DNA of 38,677 nucleotides from Gemmatimonadales bacterium (GCA_035688895.1 DASSML010000169.1:1-38677), one strand, 5' to 3'. Counted from the stretch's first letter, positions 310 to 37,586 are shown. Notes: generated from the letters alone by a model not told the origin. Numbers and translations: made by a program.

Positions 310-1602
310 ATGCCTTCACCTCGCCGAGGCGGGGCTGCCGCGCCGTCTCAGGTCGGCCATGTCACCTGTCTCGGGTGCGGCTGCGCCTGTGACGACATCG
401 TGCTCACCATCGCCAAGGGACGCATCACCGCGGCCGAGCGCGCCTGTCCGCTTGGCATCGCCTGGTTCGGCGATGGGCAGGTGCCGGACCGGGTACTGGT
501 CGACGGCAAGCCGACCGACGTCCAGCGGGCCGTCGACCGCGCGGCGGCTTTGCTGGGCGAGGCGCGCGGCCGTCTGGTGGTGGTGCTGGGGGCCGAGCTC
601 ACGGCGTCGGCGTACGGGGCTGCGCTCGCCCTGGCCGACGCGCTGGGCGCCGTAACGGACAGCGTCATCTCCGAGCCGGCTGCCGCCGGCATCCTGGCCG
701 CGCAGCGCCGTGGGCGCGCGACCGCGACGCTGGGCGAGATCCGGAACCGGGCCGACCTCATGGTCTACTGGGCAGTGGACCCCGACCGTCGGTATCCCCG
801 GTACCGCAGCCGGTACGCCGCCGCCTCTCGCGCCCTCCACCTGGCCGCCGGCGACCACCCCCGAACCGTCGTGTCGGTCACCGTTGGCGGCGACGCCGGT
901 CCGGCCGACGCCGATCTCCGGCTCGTCCTGACTCCGGACCAGGAGCTGCTCGCGCTGGCCGAGCTTCGCGCCGGACTGCAGGGCCGACACCTGGGCGGGG
1001 AGGCGCTGCCGCCCGGCGTAGCCGAGCTGGCGGGTCGCCTGACCCAGGCGAAGTACGTGGCCATCGTGCATGACGGCGAGCCGACCGCGGAGCGGCGTAC
1101 CCCGGAGCGGATCGAGGGGCTGATCGGGCTGACCCAGGCGCTCAACGGTCCAACCCGCGCGGCGCTCAGCACCCTGCGAGCCGGCGGCAATCGGAACGGG
1201 GCCGAAGCGGTGAGCACCTGGCAGACGGGGTTCCCCTTCGCGGTCGATTTCTCCCGCGGCGCGCCGCGCTATCAACCCCACCGGCGAGCCGGCGGCGCCG
1301 ATGGGTCCTCGCCCTCGGCCGTGCTGGTGGTCGGCGCCCCGGAGAGCCTGTCCGACCCGCTGCGCGCAAGCGTGCAGCGGGTCCCGGTGGTGGTGATCGG
1401 CCCCCGGGCGAGCGCCGCTCCGTTTCCCGCCACGATCGCCATCGACACCGGAGTCGCCGGAATTCACGAGGCCGGCATCGGCTACCGGCTGGACGACATC
1501 CCCCTGCCACTGCAGGCGCCTCTCCCGGGCCCGCGCTCGGCGGAAGCGTTGCTGCGCGACCTGTTGGCGCGGGTCGCCACCGCTTCGGGAGCGCCACGAT
1601 GA
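310..1602 (+). CDS. fhcB: Formyltransferase/hydrolase complex subunit B (FwdB/FhcB-like)
   Basis: 430-aa ORF with an N-terminal GHVTCLGCGCACDDIVL cysteine motif typical of FwdB/FhcB subunits. Its stop overlaps the next start (ATGA at 1599-1602). It is the first gene of the fhc cluster. The exact start is uncertain. Confidence 0.8.
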   Translation: MPSPRRGGAAAPSQVGHVTCLGCGCACDDIVLTIAKGRITAAERACPLGIAWFGDGQVPDRVLVDGKPTDVQRAVDRAAALLGEARGRLVVVLGAELTASAYGAALALADALGAVTDSVISEPAAAGILAAQRRGRATATLGEIRNRADLMVYWAVDPDRRYPRYRSRYAAASRALHLAAGDHPRTVVSVTVGGDAGPADADLRLVLTPDQELLALAELRAGLQGRHLGGEALPPGVAELAGRLTQAKYVAIVHDGEPTAERRTPERIEGLIGLTQALNGPTRAALSTLRAGGNRNGAEAVSTWQTGFPFAVDFSRGAPRYQPHRRAGGADGSSPSAVLVVGAPESLSDPLRASVQRVPVVVIGPRASAAPFPATIAIDTGVAGIHEAGIGYRLDDIPLPLQAPLPGPRSAEALLRDLLARVATASGAPR

Positions 1603-3257
1603 GCGGCGCGCGGCTCCGCATCGTCGGAGGCACGGTCCACGACCCCGCCAACGGCGTGGACGGCGAGGTGCGGGACATCTGCATCGACGACGGGCGGATC
1701 GTGGCCGAGCTGCCGTCCGGCACCCCGACGCTCGACGCCCGCGGCATGATCGTGATGCCCGGCGGCGTGGACATCCACAGCCACGTCGCCAGCTCGGCAT
1801 GCAATCACGCCCGGCGCCTGCTGGTGGAAGAGCACTCGGCGAGTCCGGTGGCGGCTCCGGCGCTGGAGCCGGGGATCTCACCCGGCCGCTCCGGCACCGG
1901 CGGCACCCTGCCCAGCACGTTCACCACCGGCTACCGCTACGCCGGGCTGGGCTACACCACCGTGTTCGACGCCGCGGTCGCGCCGAGCACCGCTCGGCAC
2001 ACCCACGCGGAGTTCGACGACACTCCGATCGTGGATGGCGGGTTCTACATCCTGTTGGGGAACGACGACTACCTGCTCCGCCAGGTTGACGCCGGCGAGC
2101 GCGACCGGGCCCGCGACTACGCGGCGTGGATGCTCGAAGCGACCGGCGGGTACGCCATCAAGATCGTGAATCCCGGCGGCGTGCAGGCGTGGAAGTCGGG
2201 GCAGCGGAACCTGACCGCCATCGACGAGGCGCTGGGCTCGAGCCGGGTGACGCCGCGAGCCATCCTGGAGACGCTCGCCGACGCCGCCAACACCCTCCGG
2301 CTGCCTCACCCGGTGCACATCCACTGCAACAACCTGGGCCAGCCGGGCAACTCGACGACCACGCTGGCGACGATGGATGCGCTGTCGGGGCGGCGGGCCC
2401 ACTTCACCCATCTGCAGTTTCACTGCTATGGCAGCGGTCCCGAGGGCAAGACCGGCGCCTGGAGCTCCGCGGCCAGGCAGGTCATCGAGCGGGTGAACGG
2501 CGATCCGCACGTCAGCGTGGACGTCGGCCAGGTGATGTTCGGGCCGGCCACCACGCTCAGCGCGGATGGCCCCGCGCAGTACCTGCTCCAGGCCAGCAGC
2601 GGGCGGAAGTGGACCAATATCGACGTGGAGCTGGAAACCGGGTGCGGGATCATCCCCTACCGCTACGAGGAGCGGGCCGCCGTGTCCTCGCTCCAATGGG
2701 CGGTCGGGCTCGAGCTCTTCCTCCTGGCGACCGATCCGTGGCGGGTGGTGCTGTCCACCGACTCGCCCAACGGCGGCTCGTTCGAGGCATATCCCGCGCT
2801 GATTCAGCTGCTAATGGACCGGACCGTCCGCGACGAGCAGCTCAAGCGGGTGAACCAGCGGCTCCTGGCCGGAAGCGCGCTGGCCGACGGCCTCGCTCGG
2901 GAGTACACCCTCAACGAGATCGCCATCATCACCCGCGCCGGCCCGGCCCGGCTGCTCGGGCTCAGGCACAAAGGCCACCTCGGCGTGGGCGCGGATGCCG
3001 ACGTGACGGTGTACTCGCGCGAGGCCGACCTGGCCCGGATGTTCTCGCTGCCCCGCTACGTCATCAAGGGGGGCACGCTGGTGGTGGAGGAAGGGCAGCT
3101 CCGCCGCGCGCCAGCCGGACGCCGCCTGCGCCTGGCACCGAAACACGACGACGCCGTGGTGTCGGACCTGCGCCGATTCTACGACGACTACGGTACGGTC
3201 GCCTTCGACAATTTCCCGGTGCGGGGGCTGCGCGATGCCCCGCTGGAGTTGGGCTGA
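1599..3257 (+). CDS. fhcA: Formyltransferase/hydrolase complex subunit A (FwdA/FhcA, amidohydrolase fold)
   Basis: 552 aa with the amidohydrolase metal-site pattern MPGGVDIHSHV. Length and layout match FwdA/FhcA. It is translationally coupled to fhcB. Confidence 0.85.
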   Translation: MSGARLRIVGGTVHDPANGVDGEVRDICIDDGRIVAELPSGTPTLDARGMIVMPGGVDIHSHVASSACNHARRLLVEEHSASPVAAPALEPGISPGRSGTGGTLPSTFTTGYRYAGLGYTTVFDAAVAPSTARHTHAEFDDTPIVDGGFYILLGNDDYLLRQVDAGERDRARDYAAWMLEATGGYAIKIVNPGGVQAWKSGQRNLTAIDEALGSSRVTPRAILETLADAANTLRLPHPVHIHCNNLGQPGNSTTTLATMDALSGRRAHFTHLQFHCYGSGPEGKTGAWSSAARQVIERVNGDPHVSVDVGQVMFGPATTLSADGPAQYLLQASSGRKWTNIDVELETGCGIIPYRYEERAAVSSLQWAVGLELFLLATDPWRVVLSTDSPNGGSFEAYPALIQLLMDRTVRDEQLKRVNQRLLAGSALADGLAREYTLNEIAIITRAGPARLLGLRHKGHLGVGADADVTVYSREADLARMFSLPRYVIKGGTLVVEEGQLRRAPAGRRLRLAPKHDDAVVSDLRRFYDDYGTVAFDNFPVRGLRDAPLELG

Positions 3258-4167
3258 GGTGGAGATCCGCGGCGTCGCGATCGAGGACACCTTCGCCGAG
3301 GCGTTCACCATGCGGGTCTCCCGGGTGGTGATCACCGCCCGGAGCCCCCGCTGGGCGCGTGAGGCGGCGCTCAAGATGACCGGCTTCGCGACCTCGGTCA
3401 TCGGCTGCAAGTGCGAGGCAGGGATCGAGCGCGAGCTCGCGCCCGACGAGACGCCCGACAACCGTCCGGGCATGAGCGTCCTGCTGCTCACGATGTCCAA
3501 GGACGACCTTCCGGTCCGGCTGATCGAGCGGGTCGGGCAGACCATCCTGACCTGCCCCACCACCGCCTGCTTCGACGGCCTGCCCGACGCGCCGGACCGG
3601 GTCGGCGTCGGCTCCGCGCTCCGGGTGTTCGGCGACGGATTCCAGGGAAGCAAGATGGTCGGCGGGCGCCGCTTCTGGCGCATTCCCGTGATGGAAGGCG
3701 AGTTCCTGGTCGAGGACAAGTTCGGGTTGCAGAAGGGTATCGGCGGCGGCAACTTCTTGATCCTCGCCACCTCGGCGGACGCGGCGCTGGCCGCCGCCGA
3801 GGCGGCGGTGGATGCAATGGCGGGCCTGCCGGGCGTCATCCTTCCATTCCCCGGCGGGGTCGTGCGGAGCGGCAGCAAGGTGGGCTCGCGGCGGACCAAG
3901 GGGATGATCGCGTCCACCAACGACGCCTTCTGCCCCACCCTGCGCGCGGTGACATCCACCGCCCTGCCCGAATCGGTCAACTCGGTGCTCGAGATCGTGC
4001 TCGACGGCATGGATGCGCCGGCCATCTCTCGCGCCATGCGCGTGGGCATCGACGCCGCGTGCCGCCAGGGGGTCGTCGGGATCACGGCGGGCAACTACGG
4101 CGGCAAGCTCGGTCCCCACCACTTCCACCTGCGCCAGATCATGAGCGGCGACGGGCCGGCCAAGTGA
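3235..4167 (+). CDS. fhcD: Formylmethanofuran:tetrahydromethanopterin N-formyltransferase (Ftr/FhcD)
   Basis: VEIRGVAIEDTFAEAF, IPVMEGEFLVED, GGGNFLILA, ASTNDAFCPTL and AGNYGGKLG align by eye along the whole length of archaeal and bacterial Ftr. An alternative GTG start at 3259 lies just after the fhcA stop. Confidence 0.9.
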   Translation: MPRWSWAEVEIRGVAIEDTFAEAFTMRVSRVVITARSPRWAREAALKMTGFATSVIGCKCEAGIERELAPDETPDNRPGMSVLLLTMSKDDLPVRLIERVGQTILTCPTTACFDGLPDAPDRVGVGSALRVFGDGFQGSKMVGGRRFWRIPVMEGEFLVEDKFGLQKGIGGGNFLILATSADAALAAAEAAVDAMAGLPGVILPFPGGVVRSGSKVGSRRTKGMIASTNDAFCPTLRAVTSTALPESVNSVLEIVLDGMDAPAISRAMRVGIDAACRQGVVGITAGNYGGKLGPHHFHLRQIMSGDGPAK

Positions 4168-4928
4168 GCGGCGAGACCACCCTCACGCTGCGTCGCGCGC
4201 TGACGCAGCGGGTGGACGCGAGCACCGTCGCCTGGGACGCCCTCCGTGGACTGGAGGCCGCCGCCATCGAGGGCCAGGAGATCTGGGTCGATGGAACGGG
4301 ACGGGCTCGGCTGGGGGATCTTTTCAAGGTCGCCGCCGCGCCCGGCGAGCGGATCCGTCTGGTGGGCGACCTCGGCCGGATGGACGGAATCGGCGCCGGT
4401 CTCGCGGGTGGCGCGCTGGTGGTCGAGGGTGACGCCGGCGAGTACGTCGGCCAGGGGATGCGGGGCGGCTCGATCGAAGTCAAAGGCCGCGCCGGTCCCC
4501 AGGCGGGTGCCGCGCTGCCGGGGGCCAAGCGCGGGATGACCGGCGGCGAGATCGTGGTGCGCGGGTCGGCCGGCGCCGGCGCCGGATCGGGCCTTCGCCG
4601 CGGGCTCATCGCGGTCGAAGGCGACGTGGCCGAGGGTGCCGGGCGCGCGATGCTCGCCGGATCGATCGTGGTCTTCGGCGCGGTCGGCGCCGAGCCCGGG
4701 CTCTGGTCGAAGCGCGGCTCGGTGGTGGCGCTCGGCACGGTGACACCACCGGCCACCTACCGCTACGCCTGCACCTATCGGCCGTCGTATCTGCCCGTGA
4801 CATTGGGCTACTTGAAGCGCCGGTACGGATGTCCGGTGACTCCGGACCATCTGTCCGGCCTGTATCGGCGGTACAGCGGCGACCTCGCCGAGCTGGGCGC
4901 CGGGGAGATTCTGGAATGGACACCGTGA
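4164..4928 (+). CDS. fhcC: Formyltransferase/hydrolase complex subunit C (FwdC/FhcC, beta-helix)
   Basis: Only the last 254 codons of track ORF 3411..4928 are credited. GTG 4164 overlaps the fhcD stop (GTGA). Repeated glycine-rich beta-helix turns (GDAGEYVGQGMRGGSIEVKGRAG, GGEIVVRGSAGAGAG, IAVEGDVAEGAG) are typical of FwdC. Confidence 0.8.
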   Translation: MSGETTLTLRRALTQRVDASTVAWDALRGLEAAAIEGQEIWVDGTGRARLGDLFKVAAAPGERIRLVGDLGRMDGIGAGLAGGALVVEGDAGEYVGQGMRGGSIEVKGRAGPQAGAALPGAKRGMTGGEIVVRGSAGAGAGSGLRRGLIAVEGDVAEGAGRAMLAGSIVVFGAVGAEPGLWSKRGSVVALGTVTPPATYRYACTYRPSYLPVTLGYLKRRYGCPVTPDHLSGLYRRYSGDLAELGAGEILEWTP

Positions 4929-5890
4929 CGACCGCGCTGGGCATGAACGAGCTCGCCTCCGAGATCGCCGACCGGCTGGCCGAGCAGGAGGACCGCTACC
5001 GGGTTCGGCTCGCCACCCTCGGAAGCGGGGCGCGGGTGATCGACGCCGGGGTCGACGCAGCCGGCGGGCTCGACGCCGGCCTCGCCCTGGCGCAAATCTG
5101 CATGGGCGGCCTCGGCAATGTCGTCTACGCGCCGCTCATCATCGGGGGGCAGACCCGGCCCGGTGTCACGGTGTGGACCGACCATCCCGCGGTCTCCTGC
5201 ATGGCGTCCCAGTACGCCGGCTGGGCGATCTCGGTCGGCAAGTATTTCGCGATGGGATCGGGCCCGCTCCGGGCCCACGCGCGGGTGGAACACGAGCTGT
5301 TCGAGAAGCTGAGCTATGAGGAGGAGGCGGGGCGCGGGATCCTGGTGCTGGAGACCCGTACCCTCCCCACCGACGAGGTGGCCGAGTACGTGGCCCAGAA
5401 GGCGCGGCTCCGGGCGTCGGCGCTCACCTTCGTCGTGGCGCCCACGGCGAGCCTGGCCGGCGGGGTGCAGATCTCGGCCCGGATCATCGAGACCGGTCTC
5501 CACAAGATGGAGACGCTGGGCTTCGACGTGCGCCGCGTGGTGAGCGCGATGGGCATGGCGCCGATCCCGCCGGTGGCCAAGAACGATCTGCGCGGCATCG
5601 GCCGCACCAACGACTGCATCCTCTACGGCGGCCAGGCACATTACACCATCCGCGCCGGCGACCAGGAGCTGGCCGAGCTGGCCGAAAAGGTGCCGGCGTC
5701 CGCCTCTCGGGATTACGGCACGCCGTTCTACGACATCTTCCAGCGGTACCAGGGGGACTTCTACAAGATCGACCCCCTCCTGTTCAGCCCGGCGGAGGTC
5801 TGGCTGACCAGCGCCGAGTCGGGGCGAACCTTCCACGCCGGCCGGCTCAATCCCGAGGTGCTGGACGCGAGCCTCTACCCCGCCCCGTGA
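4916..5890 (+). CDS. mch: Methenyl-tetrahydromethanopterin cyclohydrolase
   Basis: ATG 4916 overlaps the fhcC stop at 4926-4928, giving ~324 aa. LATLGSGARVIDAGVDAAGGLDAGLALAQICMGGLG matches the conserved Mch N-terminal region as recalled. Confidence 0.8.
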   Translation: MDTVTTALGMNELASEIADRLAEQEDRYRVRLATLGSGARVIDAGVDAAGGLDAGLALAQICMGGLGNVVYAPLIIGGQTRPGVTVWTDHPAVSCMASQYAGWAISVGKYFAMGSGPLRAHARVEHELFEKLSYEEEAGRGILVLETRTLPTDEVAEYVAQKARLRASALTFVVAPTASLAGGVQISARIIETGLHKMETLGFDVRRVVSAMGMAPIPPVAKNDLRGIGRTNDCILYGGQAHYTIRAGDQELAELAEKVPASASRDYGTPFYDIFQRYQGDFYKIDPLLFSPAEVWLTSAESGRTFHAGRLNPEVLDASLYPAP

Positions 5891-13376: not shown

Positions 13377-14162
13377 TTAGGGGGACAGCGGAGCGATGTG
13401 GGCGGCGGGCTCTGGCATTTCGCGACTGGACGGTAGGCCGGACTGCCCACCTTCCTGGTCGAAAGTCGCGCGAAGTTGGTGCAGGCGGTGGGGATCCAGA
13501 CTCCCGGACCGGCCACCTCGACACACGGCACCCCGGACGCCGATCACGTCGGGCCCGATGTTCCGCAGGACGTTGAGGTCGTCCGCGACGATGCTCCCCG
13601 CCAGTGCCGTCAACAGGCCGGCGCGTCGCGCCCGGAGCACCCACACGGTCAGCGCATCCACCGACAGGTGCCGCAGCAACCCGCGCCCGTCCTTGATCCA
13701 GGTATCGATCAGGACTCCGTTGGCACCGGCACCGATCGCGGCGTCGAGAATGCCGTCGGGAGACAGGGCTTCGGCGCGCCCGAAGTCGGCGTACGATGCC
13801 GCGATCACCGCGACCGACGGGCCGAGTTCGCCGGCCTGCTCCACCGCCCGGCGAAGGACGGCCGAGACCTGCTCCGGCCGGGAGACCCCGGCGAAACCGA
13901 TCTTGAGGAAGGTGCCGCCCGCATGCACCGGCGGAGCGAGGCGATCGAGCACGTCCGCCAGCTCAGCGGGCACGGTCGCATCGCCTAGCGCGACGCCGAG
14001 GGGCACGTGGGGCGGGAGTGTCTGCTCGATGGCGCGGAGAACCGACCTCGACACCGGGCCGAGAGGGCCGGCGTCCGGCTCCTTGGCATCCACGATGTCG
14101 GCCCCGTTGTTCGCAGCCAGCACCGCTTCGTCGGCCGACCGGACACTCACCAGCAGTCGCAT
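13377..14162 (-). CDS. mfnB: MfnB-like 4-(hydroxymethyl)-2-furancarboxaldehyde-phosphate synthase family protein (DUF556)
   Basis: Start is taken at the ATG giving MRLLVSVRSADEAVLAANNGADIVDAKEP.GPLG. This matches the MfnB/DUF556 N-terminus (LLVS....EA......GADIIDVKNP..GSLG) as recalled. Confidence 0.65.
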   Translation of the reverse strand: MRLLVSVRSADEAVLAANNGADIVDAKEPDAGPLGPVSRSVLRAIEQTLPPHVPLGVALGDATVPAELADVLDRLAPPVHAGGTFLKIGFAGVSRPEQVSAVLRRAVEQAGELGPSVAVIAASYADFGRAEALSPDGILDAAIGAGANGVLIDTWIKDGRGLLRHLSVDALTVWVLRARRAGLLTALAGSIVADDLNVLRNIGPDVIGVRGAVCRGGRSGSLDPHRLHQLRATFDQEGGQSGLPSSREMPEPAAHIAPLSP

Positions 14163-14180
14163 GCGACTCCCTTGTGAGAA

Positions 14181-14202
14181 GCTAACGCGCTGATATGTTA
14201 GC
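14181..14202. promoter_or_regulatory. Operator-like inverted repeat GCTAAC-N10-GTTAGC in the divergent mfnB-like/SDR intergenic region
   Basis: Perfect 6-bp arms at 14181-14186 and 14197-14202 lie in the AT-richest part of the 82-nt divergent spacer. A related GCTAGC palindrome sits at 14212-14217. A possible TTGTGA-N16-TATGTT promoter (14172-14199) overlaps the repeat. Confidence 0.3.
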
Positions 14203-14244
14203 ATTTATGAAGCTAGCGCAGACTGGGCAGCCGCGGGAGGCGAG

Positions 14245-20535: not shown

Positions 20536-21179
20536 CCTAAGCCTCCCGTAATCGGCGACTTGGCCGGTTTCCGATTGGGAGCTTCGCGCTCGAAGTAGCA
20601 AGCGCGCTGCGATACCCAGAAGGATCCGGTAGTGGCTCAGGTGGTTTCACCAGGGTGTGAACCGCCTCCCCAGCAGCAGTCCTTTACAGACACACATTGC
20701 TGTGCAGCGGCGTCGCTGAGGGGTTTGATGGGCCTATTCCCGCTGGCCGACACCAATACTTGGCATTCTCCCGATCCGTGGGGCGGTCGCGCGGTCGCAG
20801 TGCGCGCGCGAGCCTGCCGCACGGATATCGTCTGGTGGTGGCGTACCGCCCTGCCGATCGTACACCCGACCGCTGGCTTGCCCACTCCATCCGACGACAT
20901 TTCCCACTTCCATCATCAGGCGCGGCGCCCCCGCACCCAACCGCAGGCTCGCTTGGCGAGCGCGGCTCGGTGCATCCGGCGGGCGGCGGCCCAGCGTAAC
21001 TCCCGTTGGACCGTCGCCGCAATCGCCGAACGCGGGCCCCCGCCCGCCGCCTCACGCTTCACGTAGTCGGCGCCTCCCGGCCCGCGGCACTCGTGGTCCC
21101 GTCGCCGAACCGGCGTCCGCAGCAGGTGGCACCCGAATGCAGTAGAGCAGTAGAACCACCCTTCATCCTGAGGTCAGTT
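20536..21179 (+). other. ~645-nt apparently non-coding leader or candidate structured RNA upstream of xoxF
   Basis: No convincing ORF. Track ORFs here are low-complexity with weaker third-position GC than neighbouring genes. Local hairpins include 20543-20581 (CTCCC/GGGAG plus AATCGG/CCGATT) and 20582-20595 (CTTCG-cgct-CGAAG). No Rfam family was recognised by eye. Confidence 0.35.
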
Positions 21180-23060
21180 ATGAACCGCTTTACCCAGAAG
21201 GTGCTGTCCGGCGGTATTGCGGCGGGGCTGAGCGTAGCCTTCGCCGTGTCCGCCAACGCCCAGGCGGCTCGTACAGGGGCATGGACCCTGGACGGGAAAG
21301 AGGGCGAATGGACGATGACCGGCCGTGACTACAGCCTGCAGCGGTTCAGCCCGCTCAAGCAGATCACGACCTCCAACGTCGCCGAGCTGCGGCCGGTCTG
21401 GTCCTTCTCCACCGGCACGCTCCGGGGCCACGAGGGCAACCCCCTGGTGGTCGGGAACGTGATGTACGTCAACACGTCCTTCCCGAACATCGTGTACGCG
21501 CTCGACCTGTCGAAGCCCGGCGCGCCGCAGATCTGGAAGTACGTGCCCAACCAGTCGCCCGACGCGATTCCAATCGCCTGCTGCGACCTGGTGAACCGCG
21601 GCACCGCGTACAGCCCGAGCGGGAAGGTCTACATCCAGGCCCTCCAGGGCGAGCTGATCGCGCTCGACGCGAAGACCGGCAAGGAGCTGTGGAAGGCCAA
21701 GCACCCGGATAAGTCCAACGCCGGTGTCGAGGCCAACGGCTACAAGCAGGGCGCTACCATGACCAACGCCCCGATCTACATCAAGACCAAGTCGGGCAAG
21801 GAAATGGTCATCGCGGGCATCTCCGGCGGTGAGTTCGGCGTTCGCGGCCGCGTCTCGGCCTTCGACGCCAACAGCGGCGCGCACCTGTGGACCGCCTACA
21901 GCACTGGTCCGGACAGCGAAGTCCTGATCGACGGCGACGCGAATGCCAACTATCCGTCGCACAAGGGCAAGGACCTCGGCGTCAGCACCTGGCAGGGCGA
22001 CGAGTGGAAGCGGGGCGGCGGCACCACCTGGGGCTGGTACTCCTACGACCCCGAGCTCGACCTCTTCTACTACAGCGTCGGCAACCCGGGCACCTGGAAC
22101 CCCGATCAGCGGCCGGGCGACAACAAGTGGTCGATGACCATCTTCGCGCGCCACCCGGACAACGGTCACGCCGCCTGGGCGTACCAGATGACCCCGCACG
22201 ATGAGTGGGACTATGACGGCGTGAACGAGAACGTCCTGTTCGAGAACGGCGGCAAGAAGCTGCTCGCCCACTTCGACCGGAACGGCATCGCCTACACCGT
22301 CGACCGCACCAACGGTAAGGTCCTCGTCGGCAACGCGTACGGCCCGATCAACTGGGCCAAGAACGGCGGCACCGGCACCCCGGTTGAGGGCGTCGTGTCG
22401 ACCGGCGTCCCGGTCAAGGATCCGAAGTACGGCACCTCCTCGAAGAAGAACGGCGAGGGCATCTGCCCGGCCGCCATCGGCTTCAAGGATCAGCAGCCCT
22501 CGGCGTACTCGCCGATCACCGGCCTCTTCTACGTCCCGGCGAACCACATCTGCATGGACTATGAGGGCGTCGAAGTGAAGTACACCGCCGGTCAGCCGTA
22601 CGTCGGCGCGATCGTGCGGATGTTCCCGGGCCCCGGCGGCCACCGTGGCCGGTTCATCGCCTGGGATCCGATGAAGGGTTCCGTGGTGTGGGAGATCAAG
22701 GAGAACCTCGCGGCGTACGGCGGGGCGCTCACCACGGCCGGCGGGCTCGTCTTCTACGGCACCATGGAAGGCTGGCTCAAGGGCGTCGATGCGAAGTCGG
22801 GCAAGGTCCTCTGGCAGTTCAAGACCCCGTCCGGCATCATCGGCAACCCGATGACCTACACCGGTCCCGACGGCAACCAGTACGTCGCCGTCTACTCCGG
22901 CATCGGTGGCTGGGCCGGCATCGGCGTAGCCGCTGGTATCGGCGCTGAAGATCCGACCGCCGGTCTCGGCGCGCTCGGCGCCTTCGGCGACGCGGGCAAC
23001 TTCTCGACCCAGGGCGGCGTCATGACCGTCTTCGGGCTCAAGAACATGGCCATGAAGTAA
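21180..23060 (+). CDS. xoxF: Lanthanide-type PQQ-dependent methanol dehydrogenase (XoxF)
   Basis: ATG 21180 has GAGG 7 nt upstream, and a signal peptide ends ...VSANAQA. The protein aligns by eye along its whole length to MxaF/XoxF: FSTG.LRGHEGNPLVV, vicinal ACCDLVNRG, GGGTTWGWYSYDP, DNKWSMTIFA, ICMDYEG and DPTAGLGALGAF. TPHDEWDYDGVNE carries Asp (22215-22217) where Ca-type MxaF has Ala. No mxaI follows. Confidence 0.92.
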   Translation: MNRFTQKVLSGGIAAGLSVAFAVSANAQAARTGAWTLDGKEGEWTMTGRDYSLQRFSPLKQITTSNVAELRPVWSFSTGTLRGHEGNPLVVGNVMYVNTSFPNIVYALDLSKPGAPQIWKYVPNQSPDAIPIACCDLVNRGTAYSPSGKVYIQALQGELIALDAKTGKELWKAKHPDKSNAGVEANGYKQGATMTNAPIYIKTKSGKEMVIAGISGGEFGVRGRVSAFDANSGAHLWTAYSTGPDSEVLIDGDANANYPSHKGKDLGVSTWQGDEWKRGGGTTWGWYSYDPELDLFYYSVGNPGTWNPDQRPGDNKWSMTIFARHPDNGHAAWAYQMTPHDEWDYDGVNENVLFENGGKKLLAHFDRNGIAYTVDRTNGKVLVGNAYGPINWAKNGGTGTPVEGVVSTGVPVKDPKYGTSSKKNGEGICPAAIGFKDQQPSAYSPITGLFYVPANHICMDYEGVEVKYTAGQPYVGAIVRMFPGPGGHRGRFIAWDPMKGSVVWEIKENLAAYGGALTTAGGLVFYGTMEGWLKGVDAKSGKVLWQFKTPSGIIGNPMTYTGPDGNQYVAVYSGIGGWAGIGVAAGIGAEDPTAGLGALGAFGDAGNFSTQGGVMTVFGLKNMAMK

Positions 23061-30415: not shown

Positions 30416-31498
30416 TCAGTCACCGAGGCTGATGCCCAGCTCCCGGGCGGTCGCGATGATGTCGCTGTCCAGCGGGATGTTCTTGGCGCGCCCCACCACC
30501 TGGTCGAGAGGCACGCGGGTGATGTCCGCGCCGTTGAGCCCCACCATGGTACCGAACGCGCGGTCGGCGATCGCCCGCACGGCGGCGCCGCCGAAGCGCA
30601 GCGCCAGCAGGCGGTCGTAGGTCGTGGGCGACCCTCCCCGCTGCAGGTGCCCCAGGACCAGGGTCCGGGTCTCCTTCCCGGTGCGATGCTCGATGGCGCG
30701 GGCCACCTTGCTGCCGATGCCACCCAGCCGGTCCACCGTGCCGACGCCCCGCCGCTCGACCAGCTCGATCGCGCCGTCGCGCGGCCGGGCGCCTTCCGCG
30801 ACCACCACGATGCTGAATCGGCGCCCCGCCGCTTCGCGGGTGAGGATCTTCTGGCACACCCTTTCGATGTCGAACGGAATCTCGGGCAGCAGGATCACGT
30901 CGGCGCTGCCCGACAGTCCGCTGTACAGCGCGATCCAGCCGGCGTAGCGCCCCATCAGCTCCACCACCATCACCCTGTCGTGGCTCTCGGCGGTGCTGTG
31001 CACCTTGTCGAGCGCCTCGGTGGCGGTGCTCACGGCACTGTCGAAGCCGAAGCTCCGCTGGGTGCCGGCGACGTCGTTGTCGATCGTCTTGGGCACGCAG
31101 ACCACCGGCAGGCCCTTGCACCAGAGCTGGTGGGAGATCTGCAGGCTGCCGTCGCCGCCGATCGACACCAGCGCGTCGAAGCCGCTGGCGTGAAACGCCG
31201 CGACCAGGTCGTCCGAGCGATCGACCTCGTATTCCTTGCCCTCGGGGTCCCGCATGACGTAGCGGAACGGATTGCCTCGATTGGTGGTCCCGAGGATGGT
31301 GCCGCCGAGATGGGTGATGCCGCGGACCGAGTCGGGACCGAGTCGAACCACCCCGTTGAAGGAGAGCAGCCCCTCGTAACCACGCTGGATTCCGTACGCC
31401 TGCCACCCCCGGGACTGCGCCGAGAGCACCACCGCCCGGATCACGGCATTGAGACCCGGGGCGTCCCCGCCGCCGGTGGAGAGGGCAATTCGCATCAC
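30416..31498 (-). CDS. pfk: 6-phosphofructokinase (phosphoryl-donor specificity unresolved)
   Basis: MRIALSTGGGDAPGLNAVIR, SIGGDGSL, PKTIDNDV and MGRYAGW. Gly in GGDG is ATP-type, but Lys in PKTIDND is seen in PPi-type and actinobacterial-type enzymes. The GTG start overlaps the stop of the upstream selenoprotein gene. Confidence 0.9.
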   Translation of the reverse strand: MMRIALSTGGGDAPGLNAVIRAVVLSAQSRGWQAYGIQRGYEGLLSFNGVVRLGPDSVRGITHLGGTILGTTNRGNPFRYVMRDPEGKEYEVDRSDDLVAAFHASGFDALVSIGGDGSLQISHQLWCKGLPVVCVPKTIDNDVAGTQRSFGFDSAVSTATEALDKVHSTAESHDRVMVVELMGRYAGWIALYSGLSGSADVILLPEIPFDIERVCQKILTREAAGRRFSIVVVAEGARPRDGAIELVERRGVGTVDRLGGIGSKVARAIEHRTGKETRTLVLGHLQRGGSPTTYDRLLALRFGGAAVRAIADRAFGTMVGLNGADITRVPLDQVVGRAKNIPLDSDIIATARELGISLGD

Positions 31499-31722
31499 CT
31501 GGAGCTCTGGAGTATCCGCACTACCTCTCCCGGTTCGGCGTGCCGGCGGACGGCCTTCTTGGAGAAGACCACCTTGCCATCGACCGAGACGTCGAACACG
31601 CCGCCGGACGACGGAATCAGCCGCACGTCCACTTCAGGGAACGACTGCTTCAGCTCGGCGGCCAGACTGGCTGCCCTCGGCTGGTAGTTTCAGACGACGC
31701 AGTAGGTAATGGTGGCGATCAC
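31495..31722 (-). CDS. Rdx/SelW-like selenoprotein (CxxU), 75 codons with in-frame TGA = Sec at codon 11
   Basis: GTG 31722 has AGGAGG 8 nt upstream. Translation is VIATITYCVV[TGA 31690-31692]NYQPRAASLAAELKQSFPEVDVRLIPSSGGVFDVSVDGKVVFSKKAVRRHAEPGEVVRILQSSR, ending at TGA 31495-31497. This follows the Rdx-family pattern (I.YC..C.W..RA..LA.EL...F......L.P...G.F.V.VDG..V.SK), with U replacing the second redox Cys. It is absent from the ORF track because of the TGA. Confidence 0.75.
31651..31683 (-). promoter_or_regulatory. Candidate bacterial SECIS stem-loop
   Basis: The mRNA sequence CAGCCGAGGGCAGCCAGUCUGGCCGCCGAGCUG begins 6 nt after the UGA. Pairings are CAGC/GCUG, GGC/GCC and GCCA/UGGC, with a GUC apical loop. 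The loop G is 23 nt past the UGA, within the range described for bacterial SECIS elements. Confidence 0.45.
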
Positions 31723-31815
31723 GCCGCTTTCCTCCTGGTTTGTGGGGACCGCCGCGAATCGTAGTCCTCCCGGGGGGAGATGCCAAGGGACGCCGGGCGG
31801 GTGTGACGGCGCTCC

Positions 31816-35048: not shown

Positions 35049-35438
35049 ATGATGCACATCGGTTCTCGCCTCGGCCTGGTGCTCGCCGTCGCCGTTCTCG
35101 TCGGGGCCACCCCCGCGGCGGCCCAGGGCAAGGCTCCGGCCGGTCCCACCCCGGCGCTGGCCCAGAAAGGCGATTCGATCTTCCACGGCCCGGGGCTGTG
35201 CTACGCCTGCCATGGGGCCAACGCCCAGGGCGCCGTGGGGCCGAACCTCACCGACTCGGAGTGGATCCACGGCGACGGCTCCTACGACTTCATCGTGGCG
35301 ACCGTGACCTCCGGCATCCCCAAGGAGAAGGCCAAGGGCGGCGTCCCGATGCCGGCCAAGGGTGGAAGCAGCATCAGCGATGACGACGTGAAGGCGGTCG
35401 CAGCCTACGTCTATTCGTTGAGCCACAAGCTCCAGTAA
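35049..35438 (+). CDS. Periplasmic class-I c-type cytochrome
   Basis: AGGAG at 35041-35045 and a signal peptide ending ...ATPAAAQG. A single CYACHG haem motif is present, with MPAKGG as a candidate Met ligand. 129 aa. Confidence 0.8.
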   Translation: MMHIGSRLGLVLAVAVLVGATPAAAQGKAPAGPTPALAQKGDSIFHGPGLCYACHGANAQGAVGPNLTDSEWIHGDGSYDFIVATVTSGIPKEKAKGGVPMPAKGGSSISDDDVKAVAAYVYSLSHKLQ

Positions 35439-35513: not shown

Positions 35514-37586
35514 ATGACCAGCAACCGTCTCGGGACGGCCAGCTCCTCTTACCTCCGCTCGGCCGCCCATCAGCCGATCCACTGGTATCCCTGGAGTGAA
35601 GAGGCGTTCGCCGCCGCTCGGTGCGCCGACAAGCCCGTGCTCCTCGACATCGGCGCGGTCTGGTGCCACTGGTGCCACGTGATGGACGGGGAGTCGTACG
35701 AGGATCCCGCCCTGGCCGAGTACCTCAACCAGCACTTCGTCTGCATCAAGGTGGATCGGGATGAGCGGCCCGACGTCGACGCCCGCTACCAGCACGCCGT
35801 CCAGGCGATCACTCGCCAGGGCGGCTGGCCGCTCACCGCTTTTCTCACTCCGACCGGCGACGTGTTCTACGGCGGGACCTACTTCCCACCCGACGGGAGG
35901 TACGGTCGGCCGGGCTTTCACACGGTACTGGCCGGAGTCCTGGACGCGTATCACTCCCGGCGCGATCAGGTGACCGCCCAGGCGGACGCCATTCGGCGGA
36001 TCCTGGACGCCGCCCTCGACGAAGCCGCTCCCGGTGAGGCCTCACCGGCGCTGCTCGCCGGCGCGGTGCGCCAGATGGCCGCGGTGTTCGATCGGATCCA
36101 TGGCGGCTTCGGGAGTCAGCCCAAGTTCCCCCATCCGGGCGCGATCACCGTGCTGCTGCACCGGTGGTACGACGCACCCGATGCGGAAACGCGTCGGATC
36201 ATCGATCGGACCCTGGAGGGGATGGGCCGGGGCGGTGTCTACGACCAGCTCGGAGGCGGCTTCCATCGCTACAGCGTGGACGCGGAGTGGGTCGTGCCCC
36301 ACTTCGAGAAGATGTCCTACGACAACTCCGAGCTGCTCAAGGCCTACCTCGACGCGTATGCCCTGTTCGGCACCGAGGAATACGCCGAGGTGGCGCGGGG
36401 CATCGTCCGCTGGGTGCGTGAGGTGATGGCGGATCCGGAAGGCGGCTACGCGGCGAGCCAGGACGCCGACGTGGGCCTCGACGACGATGGCGACTATTTC
36501 ACCTGGACCCGGGACGAGGCCGCCGAGGCGCTGACGCCGGAGGAACTGGCGGTGGTCGGTGAGTACTACGATATCGGCACCGCCGGGGAGATGCACCACC
36601 ATCCCGGCAAGAACGTGCTCTTCGTCGCGGTCGACCTGCCCCAGCTGGCTCGCCGCCTCGGACGTGCCGAGTCGGAGGTCCGGGTACTCCTCGATTCCGG
36701 CCGCGCCAAGCTCCTGGCCGCGCGAGCGCGGCGGACCGCGCCTTTCGTTGACCGGACCCGGTACGCCAACTGGAACGCGATGATGGCCTCCGCGCTGCTC
36801 CGGGCCGGCGAGGTCCTGGGCGACGAATGGGCCCGCGAGCACGCCCTGCGGACCCTCGAGCGTCTGCGCCGCGAGGCGGACGAGCCCGACGCGCTCCGCC
36901 ACACCCCGGGCGGCGTCACCGGCCTCCTCGAGGACCAGGTGCACGCCGCGGCCGCGGCCCTCGACGCCTACGAGGTCACCGCGGACGCCGGCTGGCTGCG
37001 CTGGGCCGAAGCGCTGATGGAGCGGGTCTGGCGTGAGTACCGCGATGAAGCTCGCGGAGGGCTGTTCGACACGGTGCCGAGCCGACAGGGCGAAGGCCTC
37101 CTCCCCACCCGGCTCAAGCCGATCCAGGACACCCCCACTCCGAGCCCGAATGGAGTGGCCGGCGTCGTCTGCGCCCGGCTGCATGCCTTCACCGAAGACG
37201 TGCGCTGGGCCGATCGCCGGGAGGAGCTGGTGGCGGCCTTCGCAGGCGGCGCCGCGACACTGGGCCTCCATGGCGCGGCCTACCTGCTGGCGCTCGATTG
37301 GCAGCTCAACCCGCCCACTCACCTGGTGGTGACCGGTCCCGCCGGCGATCCCACGGCGGAGGCCTTCCACCGGGCCGCCCTCGCCGGCTTCGCGCCGCGC
37401 CGGGTGGTCCGGCGCCTGCTCCCCGAGCCCACCGGAACGCCCCTGCCCCCTCCCCTCCGCGCGATGCTTCGGACCGGCTCCGAGCCGCGCGGCTACGCCT
37501 GCCGCGGGATGGCCTGCAGCCTTCCGGCCGAGTCGATCGATGCCTGGCGCGAGACGCTCGCGTCGCTGGTGCCGCCGAGGGATTAG
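35514..37586 (+). CDS. Thioredoxin-domain protein of the DUF255/YyaL family (thioredoxin fold plus alpha/alpha six-hairpin domain)
   Basis: HWYPWSEEAF..A...DKPVLLDIGAVWCHWCHVMD.ESYED and FVCIKVDRDERPDVD are the hallmark N-terminal DUF255 pattern. 690 aa. Confidence 0.85.
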   Translation: MTSNRLGTASSSYLRSAAHQPIHWYPWSEEAFAAARCADKPVLLDIGAVWCHWCHVMDGESYEDPALAEYLNQHFVCIKVDRDERPDVDARYQHAVQAITRQGGWPLTAFLTPTGDVFYGGTYFPPDGRYGRPGFHTVLAGVLDAYHSRRDQVTAQADAIRRILDAALDEAAPGEASPALLAGAVRQMAAVFDRIHGGFGSQPKFPHPGAITVLLHRWYDAPDAETRRIIDRTLEGMGRGGVYDQLGGGFHRYSVDAEWVVPHFEKMSYDNSELLKAYLDAYALFGTEEYAEVARGIVRWVREVMADPEGGYAASQDADVGLDDDGDYFTWTRDEAAEALTPEELAVVGEYYDIGTAGEMHHHPGKNVLFVAVDLPQLARRLGRAESEVRVLLDSGRAKLLAARARRTAPFVDRTRYANWNAMMASALLRAGEVLGDEWAREHALRTLERLRREADEPDALRHTPGGVTGLLEDQVHAAAAALDAYEVTADAGWLRWAEALMERVWREYRDEARGGLFDTVPSRQGEGLLPTRLKPIQDTPTPSPNGVAGVVCARLHAFTEDVRWADRREELVAAFAGGAATLGLHGAAYLLALDWQLNPPTHLVVTGPAGDPTAEAFHRAALAGFAPRRVVRRLLPEPTGTPLPPPLRAMLRTGSEPRGYACRGMACSLPAESIDAWRETLASLVPPRD

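Follow-up and report, generated by a model that had tools for sequence, protein, structure and literature searches.

A predicted selenocysteine-containing Rdx (SelW-like) protein encoded upstream of pfk in Gemmatimonadales

Introduction

Selenoprotein W (SelW)-like proteins with a CxxU redox motif, where U is selenocysteine (Sec), are established bacterial selenoproteins that have been described in Campylobacter, Geobacter, Desulfotalea, and marine metagenomes (PMC1088965; PMC1794560; PMC2398784), and they are among the commonest selenoproteins known in prokaryotes (PMC1088965; PMC2398784). In the Global Ocean Sampling (GOS) data, SelW-like proteins are the most widespread, with 427 Sec forms versus 56 cysteine (Cys) forms (PMC2398784), and their Cys homologs are few in Sec-using organisms (PMC1794560). 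Here, we describe a predicted member of this group in a 38,677-nt stretch of DNA from a Gemmatimonadales bacterium (GCA_035688895.1, DASSML010000169.1:1-38677), the whole of which is hereafter referred to as the window. The gene in question belongs to the Rdx (SelW/SelT/SelH) family, contains one in-frame TGA codon, and directly precedes the 6-phosphofructokinase (PFK) gene pfk on the minus strand.

The locus resembles the described bacterial CxxU genes in several respects: the predicted product has about 75 residues with the predicted order beta1-(CxxU)-alpha1-beta2-beta3-beta4-alpha2, the putative Sec occupies the second position of the CxxC-equivalent motif, a candidate Sec insertion sequence (SECIS) lies directly downstream within the coding sequence, and Sec forms are more numerous than Cys forms. 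Unlike the described genes, it is found in Gemmatimonadales, represented largely by metagenome-assembled genomes (MAGs) from soil, is coupled to pfk in most species, and appears in public gene calls in truncated form only. The kind of gene has been known since 2004-05; new are its occurrence in this host lineage, its mis-annotation, which is systematic, and a coupling to pfk that is conserved across genomes. The Cys-type Rdx proteins of solved structure, namely Atu0228 (2FA8), SAV_2001 (3DEX), the PA protein 2OKA, and those of Pseudomonas fluorescens (2OBK) and Vibrio cholerae (2P0G), are homologous to the window protein over residues 4-71; unlike the latter, they carry Cys in place of Sec, and they exceed it in length by about 25-30 residues. 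Mammalian selenoprotein W (2NPB) and MIEN1 (2LJK) share the fold family and the position of the CxxU/CxxC motif; however, their sequence similarity to the window protein is weak (E = 4e-4), and the eukaryotic SECIS is located in the 3' untranslated region and belongs to a different type.

Results

The Rdx reading frame and its protein family

We propose, with a probability of roughly 0.9, that the window encodes a 75-residue Rdx protein with the motif Cys8-Val-Val-Sec11, whose UGA codon would be decoded as Sec and whose gene would be co-transcribed and translationally coupled with pfk. The following features define the predicted gene.

31495..31722, minus strand: Rdx/SelW-like coding sequence, 75 sense codons plus stop, motif C8-V-V-U11
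31731..31736, minus strand: AGGAGG Shine-Dalgarno sequence, 8-nt spacer to the GTG, read directly from the sequence
31720..31722, minus strand: GTG start codon; ATG or GTG stands exactly 10 codons before the TGA in nearly all orthologs
31699..31701, minus strand: TGC codon of Cys8, the predicted resolving Cys of CxxU; codon positions 1 and 2 are invariant in 81 orthologs, and the residue equals the first Cys of CxxC in solved Rdx structures
31690..31692, minus strand: in-frame TGA, codon 11, predicted to be read as UGA for Sec; the sole TGA within the Rdx frame
31495..31632, minus strand: remnant open reading frame (ORF) of 45 aa covering the C-terminal part of Rdx, from an ORF list with a minimum of 30 aa

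The conceptual translation of minus-strand positions 31722..31495 is VIATITYCVV*NYQPRAASLAAELKQSFPEVDVRLIPSSGGVFDVSVDGKVVFSKKAVRRHAEPGEVVRILQSSR, where the asterisk marks the internal TGA. The AGGAGG-GTG start, the 75-codon frame, the lone internal TGA, and the GTGA overlap with pfk are all present as described in the initial annotation. Its statement that no ORF lies between pfk and the divergent ompA promoter needs qualification in view of the 45-aa ORF listed above.

Family searches, in which U was replaced by C in the query, bore out the proposed assignment to Rdx. The protein scores 74.8 bits against Pfam Rdx (PF10262, cut-off 22.6) in an alignment that crosses the TGA (residues 4-72 versus profile positions 3-73 of 74), 99.3 bits against NCBIfam NF041051 'SelT/SelW/SelH family (seleno)protein' (cut-off 88), and 64.6 bits against TIGR02174 CXXU_selWTH (cut-off 34.2). 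All PDB sequence matches are Rdx-fold proteins (2FA8, 3DEX, 2OKA, 2OBK, 2OJL, 2P0G, MIEN1 under 2LJK, and mouse SelW under 2NPB), and the CxxC motif of these homologs, 2FA8 and 3DEX among them, aligns with C8-V-V-U11 (YCTQCNW in solved homologs versus YCVVUNY). This alignment places the TGA at the second Cys of CxxC, as had been suggested, and a locus-matched ortholog described below has TGC at the same position. The AlphaFold model of a Cys ortholog (P0001, 72% identical to the window protein; predicted local distance difference test, pLDDT, 64.5) has the order beta1-alpha1-beta2-beta3-beta4-alpha2, with beta-1 at residues 4-9 and alpha-1 at residues 15-28. In a Foldseek search with this model, the top 23 matches are all Rdx/SelW proteins (TM 0.57-0.68), followed by thioredoxins; the best structural matches are 2FA8, 3DEX, 2OKA, 2OBK, and 2P0G (TM 0.64-0.68). 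Judging from these profile and alignment matches, the frame at 31722..31495 is confidently predicted to encode a 75-residue protein of the Rdx thioredoxin-fold family.

Conservation of the frame and of its internal TGA

A scan of species-representative genomes yielded 557 relatives, the best 80 of which (60-92% identity, nearly all Gemmatimonadales MAGs) were retained and combined with four soil-metagenome contigs of identical locus and the window into a set of 85 sequences. The only record outside Gemmatimonadota among the 80 loci (L011, JAKEHP010000462.1) is a 1.7-kb contig from a 'Methylomirabilota' bin; its Rdx is 73% identical to that of the window, and the contig is probably mis-binned.

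The in-frame motif [YF]-C-x-x-stop-[ND]-Y is present in 85/85 sequences. The stop codon within it is TGA in every case, never TAA or TAG; the terminal stops of the same genes are a mixture of TGA, TAG, and TAA. Across these sequences, column conservation amounts to ~0.3-0.6 before the start codon and to 0.8-1.0 thereafter at codon positions 1 and 2, with wobble at position 3, and this periodic, coding-type pattern extends from codon -10 through the gene end on both sides of the TGA. Since conservation rises so sharply at the start codon and is accompanied by third-position wobble, the 10 codons before the TGA are predicted to be translated; these codons hold the I-x-Y-C beta-strand and the first Cys of the Rdx profile. 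In-frame conservation downstream of the TGA, whose lack would have spoken against the gene according to the initial annotation, was found in all 80 genomes. Reassignment of TGA in the genetic code of this organism was ruled out, because TGA is the main stop codon of the genome: it ends 23 of the 34 window genes, and inside these frames we counted a single TGA (Rdx codon 11) versus 162 TGG codons.

Both Sec- and Cys-type orthologs, the comparison proposed in the initial annotation, were identified. In a strain whose PFK is almost identical to that of the window (L087, ENA ERZ27257243 k141_1222465, positions 1-818), the ortholog located directly before pfk has TGC at the Sec position (motif CTAC) and forms one continuous ORF. 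The same contig carries a tandem arrangement of a divergent TGA-containing Rdx paralog with the motif CGM-U-GYQSRAAGLAATLK, the Cys-form ortholog, and pfk. Because both Rdx genes have the common N-terminus MSELVIEYC, their sequences suggest that Sec was turned into Cys by a recent recombination in this strain.

Two database entries with apparent tryptophan at the Sec site require comment. The 'W' of protein P0112 was rejected, as the codon is actually TGA and was mistranslated by the source record. The record of another locus (L088, JGI 3300006092, positions 754-975) has W at the Sec TGA as well as at the terminal TGA, and gene calling here apparently relied on a TGA=Trp code; this copy of Sec-Rdx adjoins a sigma-70 family gene and not pfk. 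Finally, specificity was checked by a scan of 1.08 Mb on both strands for a TGA combined with a G-U-loop hairpin and an open frame with high GC content at third codon positions (GC3). The matches were 30 Rdx genes and a single, trivial false positive, with no other selenoprotein genes among them.

A SECIS-like hairpin downstream of the TGA

The region immediately 3' of the TGA contains a predicted stem-loop with the following elements.

31657..31675, minus strand: SECIS-like hairpin core, an 8-bp helix (31675-31668/31664-31657) with the loop G-U-C (31667-31665)
31651..31683, minus strand: extended stem-loop with an outer 4-bp helix (31683-31680/31654-31651), from the minimum-free-energy and centroid folds

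The core begins 14 nt after the UGA. At codons +6 to +10 after the TGA, third positions are 0.89-1.00 conserved, compared with ~0.4-0.7 elsewhere, and being almost invariant they point to a constraint beyond that on the protein. We aligned the 60 nt from the TGA onward in 81 sequences, and RNAalifold returned a helix of columns 18-25/29-36 with the loop at columns 26-28. The helix cells are paired in 94.9% of cases, versus 13-54% when the partners are slid by 1-3 columns, and none of 500 shuffles reached 94.9%. Pair 18:36, in which the third base of an Arg codon meets that of an Ala codon, is AU in 38 sequences, GC in 36, CG in 2, and unpaired in 5; none of the 1,770 column pairs surpasses its mutual information of 0.914 bits, and all other partners of either column are at or below 0.37 bits. 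Drift in GC3 was rejected as the source of this covariation, given that background GC3 is 0.81 versus 0.78 in the AU and GC groups and that other columns stay at or below 0.37 bits. One ortholog (L017) displays a double compensatory change, GCC...GGC to AUC...GAU. The loop comprises 3-5 nt, with G26 invariant in the 81 sequences and U27 present in 89% of them, and the divergent TGA-containing paralog of strain L087 has an identical GCCGCC-GGUCU-GGCGGC hairpin at an equal distance from its TGA.

The 33-nt stem-loop at 31651-31683 had been reported in full by the initial annotation. It is recovered by the minimum-free-energy and centroid folds and has a covarying core; however, the conserved part is the inner helix at 31675-31657, and the outer helix is paired in only 75.6% of cases across orthologs, a weak level of support.

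Like the SECIS of Escherichia coli fdhF, as read from MG1655, the element is a hairpin within the coding sequence just 3' of the UGA, with an apical GGUCUG and a G-U in the loop. The G-U is found at nt 26-27 from the U of UGA versus 23-24 in fdhF, that is, one codon further. In contrast to fdhF, the upper stem is GC-rich (GCCGCC/GGCGGC), and the loop probably has 3 nt (GUC) and is closed by G.U or A-U. No equivalent of the bulged U17 of the fdhF SECIS is evident in the window hairpin. From its sequence, position, and covariation, the hairpin at 31675-31657 is predicted to be a bacterial SECIS-like element.

Decoding of the UGA codon and alternative explanations

The UGA at 31692-31690 would be decoded as Sec by the standard bacterial route. 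In the proposed mechanism, SelB with GTP and Sec-tRNA(Sec) would bind the SECIS within the coding sequence (core 31675-31657, apical G-U 23-24 nt beyond the UGA) and bring Sec to the ribosome, competing there with release factor 2. The resulting protein would be a small selenol/thiol oxidoreductase that cycles via a Cys8-Sec11 selenenylsulfide. We infer the presence of the Sec machinery, the actual insertion of Sec, the redox chemistry, and any functional tie to PFK.

Several observations weigh against Sec decoding. The genes selA, selB, and selD and a tRNA-Sec gene were not seen in the window and ~0.5 Mb of flanking DNA from 84 loci, where tblastn searches with E. coli SelA, SelB, and SelD gave 0 matches and tRNA scans detected no tRNA gene. 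No report of Sec decoding in Gemmatimonadota was found in the literature that could be searched. The hairpin core of the window is mismatched at A31672/C31660, and 23 of the 81 orthologs have an A/C mismatch at pair 22:32. The stability of the single-sequence fold is unexceptional in comparison with shuffles (z = 0.39 for 66 nt and -1.19 for 42 nt); this kind of test is weak for a real SECIS, because the proven fdhF element scores only z = -1.6 in it. The covariance-model check suggested in the initial annotation turned out negative, as Rfam gathering and E-value scans matched no SECIS model. The structural model is that of the Cys ortholog P0001 and not of the window protein, and its confidence is low. 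Separately, weak Rfam matches to CRISPR-DR24 and CcsR1 were rejected as chance, a SelD search of plasmid records gave no Gemmatimonadetes match, and a survey of bacterial selenium utilization with its supplements does not mention the phylum Gemmatimonadota.

The failure to see Sec machinery in the window and the 84 flanking loci would also fit readthrough of the UGA without such machinery by a near-cognate Trp, Cys, or Arg tRNA, perhaps stimulated by the hairpin, which would yield a full-length protein lacking selenium. A residue other than Sec and Cys has indeed arisen at this site at least once: in L089 (GCA_033612675.1, JAWMQY010417899.1, positions 698-922), CGA (Arg) replaces the Sec TGA to give the motif CVTR, with pfk still next to it; this CGA may represent a mutation that inactivates the protein, a variant that is tolerated, or an error, the contig being 1 kb in length. 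We nevertheless regard readthrough of this kind as very unlikely. The hairpin appears to have the features of a SelB-binding SECIS, namely a loop G that never varies, the same GGUCUG as in fdhF, and a fixed spacing from the UGA. Furthermore, the TGA is kept throughout the set although a single mutation to TGG or TGC would encode a residue directly, and it takes the place of the second, catalytic Cys of CxxC, at which a Trp or Arg residue would destroy the redox function. The family is also a documented selenoprotein family (PMC2398784).

Another possibility is that the public annotation is right, the TGA being a genuine stop, the product a C-terminal polypeptide of 45-57 aa, and the 10 upstream codons a separate leader ORF or untranslated. 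All database gene calls take this short form, and TGA is a normal stop in this genome. Our protein search retrieved 201 relatives, nearly all of 43-67 aa and starting with 'LAAELK' just past the expected TGA; one of them, P0015, is 100% identical to the 45-aa remnant and bears the JGI name 'selenoprotein W-related protein'. Because their starts fall just past the TGA, these short calls are best explained by gene callers restarting after the internal stop, and the database start codons look arbitrary, being TTG, CTG, or GTG at varying positions. A short product would lose strand beta-1 and the entire redox motif, whereas the upstream codons that encode them display coding-type conservation and the Cys ortholog is one uninterrupted ORF. 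We consider a genuine short product highly improbable, and the expectation of the initial annotation that automated callers would miss or truncate the gene is borne out by the public records, which hold the 43-67 aa pieces only. That the frame is open by chance, belongs to a pseudogene, or results from a sequencing error, with which the non-significant stability of the single-sequence hairpin would agree, has a negligible probability, because the TGA is conserved in 85/85 sequences: it recurs in 80 species-level assemblies that are independent of one another and in 4 metagenome contigs, with purifying selection on both of its sides.

Linkage of the Rdx gene to pfk and its genomic neighborhood

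Two further features belong to the predicted transcription unit.

30416..31498, minus strand: pfk, 6-phosphofructokinase; Pfam PFK and NCBIfam NF002872 ATP-dependent PFK (365 bits, cut-off 253)
31758..31786, minus strand: sigma-70-like promoter candidate TTGGCA-17-TACGAT, a weak prediction from a consensus scan

The terminal TGA of Rdx (31497-31495) shares bases with two possible start codons of pfk, namely the GTG at 31498, as GTGA, and, as TGATG, an ATG at 31495 that gene callers have chosen. A database look-up of the pfk product found the 359-aa version with the ATG start on record and not the 360-aa version with the GTG start. The coupling to pfk noted in the initial annotation extends well beyond the window: pfk directly follows Rdx, with a gap of -4 to +43 nt, in 68 of the 80 genomes, 19 of which have the identical 4-nt overlap. 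A clade of 10 genomes (L038, L049, L052, L056, L059, L060, L066, L067, L068, and L072) has no pfk within 3 kb and instead has a large helicase-like ORF downstream of Rdx. Upstream of Rdx, a divergent OmpA gene is present in 65/80 genomes. The scan for terminator-like sites found none between Rdx and pfk, and the sigma-70 consensus scan gave one site, the above promoter candidate at 31786-31758, versus 0.1 expected. Rdx and pfk constitute an operon-like pair with conserved linkage, and the two genes would be co-transcribed and translationally coupled through the overlap of the pfk start with the Rdx stop.

In one genome (L045, QHUC01000110.1, positions 3001-4170), the C-terminus of Rdx and PFK are joined in a single 388-codon frame. 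We rejected it as a functional Rdx-PFK fusion, since the in-frame deletion removed the first ~48 residues of PFK and with them its nucleotide-binding N-terminus (GGDAPG); a lesion or an artefact of the assembly is the probable explanation.

Other genes of the window include a 690-aa Thioredox_DsbH (DUF255) thioredoxin-domain protein at 35514-37586, a few kb from Rdx, with a c-type cytochrome gene just upstream (35049-35438); the same gene order is found on two metagenome contigs (L001 and L002). Positions 1599-24651 have the appearance of a methylotrophy-type gene island, in a genome with a GC content of 69.4%. The island contains genes of tetrahydromethanopterin (H4MPT)-linked one-carbon metabolism (FTR at 3235-4167, MCH at 4829-5890, and an amidohydrolase at 1599-3257) and cofactor-biosynthesis genes encoding a RimK-like ATP-grasp protein, PTPS, MfnB/4-HFC-P synthase (13377-14204, minus strand), DUF6513 with a pterin-binding domain, DUF447, and a GHMP kinase. 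A further gene of the island encodes a pyrroloquinoline quinone (PQQ) dehydrogenase of the methanol/ethanol family (21006-23060; TIGR03075, 631 bits); next come those for a solute-binding protein and a cytochrome c, in an XoxF-J-G-like order.

Discussion

The Rdx gene is carried by no fewer than 80 Gemmatimonadales genomes at the species level and probably by the majority of the 557 relatives, and the records of these genes lack the active site; correction of the annotation would restore a complete redox protein. The finding leaves the understanding of the Sec recoding mechanism unchanged. What the gene implies is the use of Sec in an abundant soil order, on which we found no literature.

No published link between SelW-like proteins and PFK was found in the literature, and the conserved overlap with pfk provides a testable lead for a protein family whose role has been unknown for ~20 years. 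As a tentative and rather doubtful idea, the Sec-containing Rdx protein might act specifically on the coupled PFK, as its redox partner or regulator, linking glycolytic/gluconeogenic flux to redox or selenium status across Gemmatimonadales. A corollary of this idea is that Sec decoding would be a near-universal, previously unreported trait of an abundant and largely aerobic order of soil bacteria. If the idea were true, the SelW-like family of bacteria would also gain, in PFK, its first concrete functional client.

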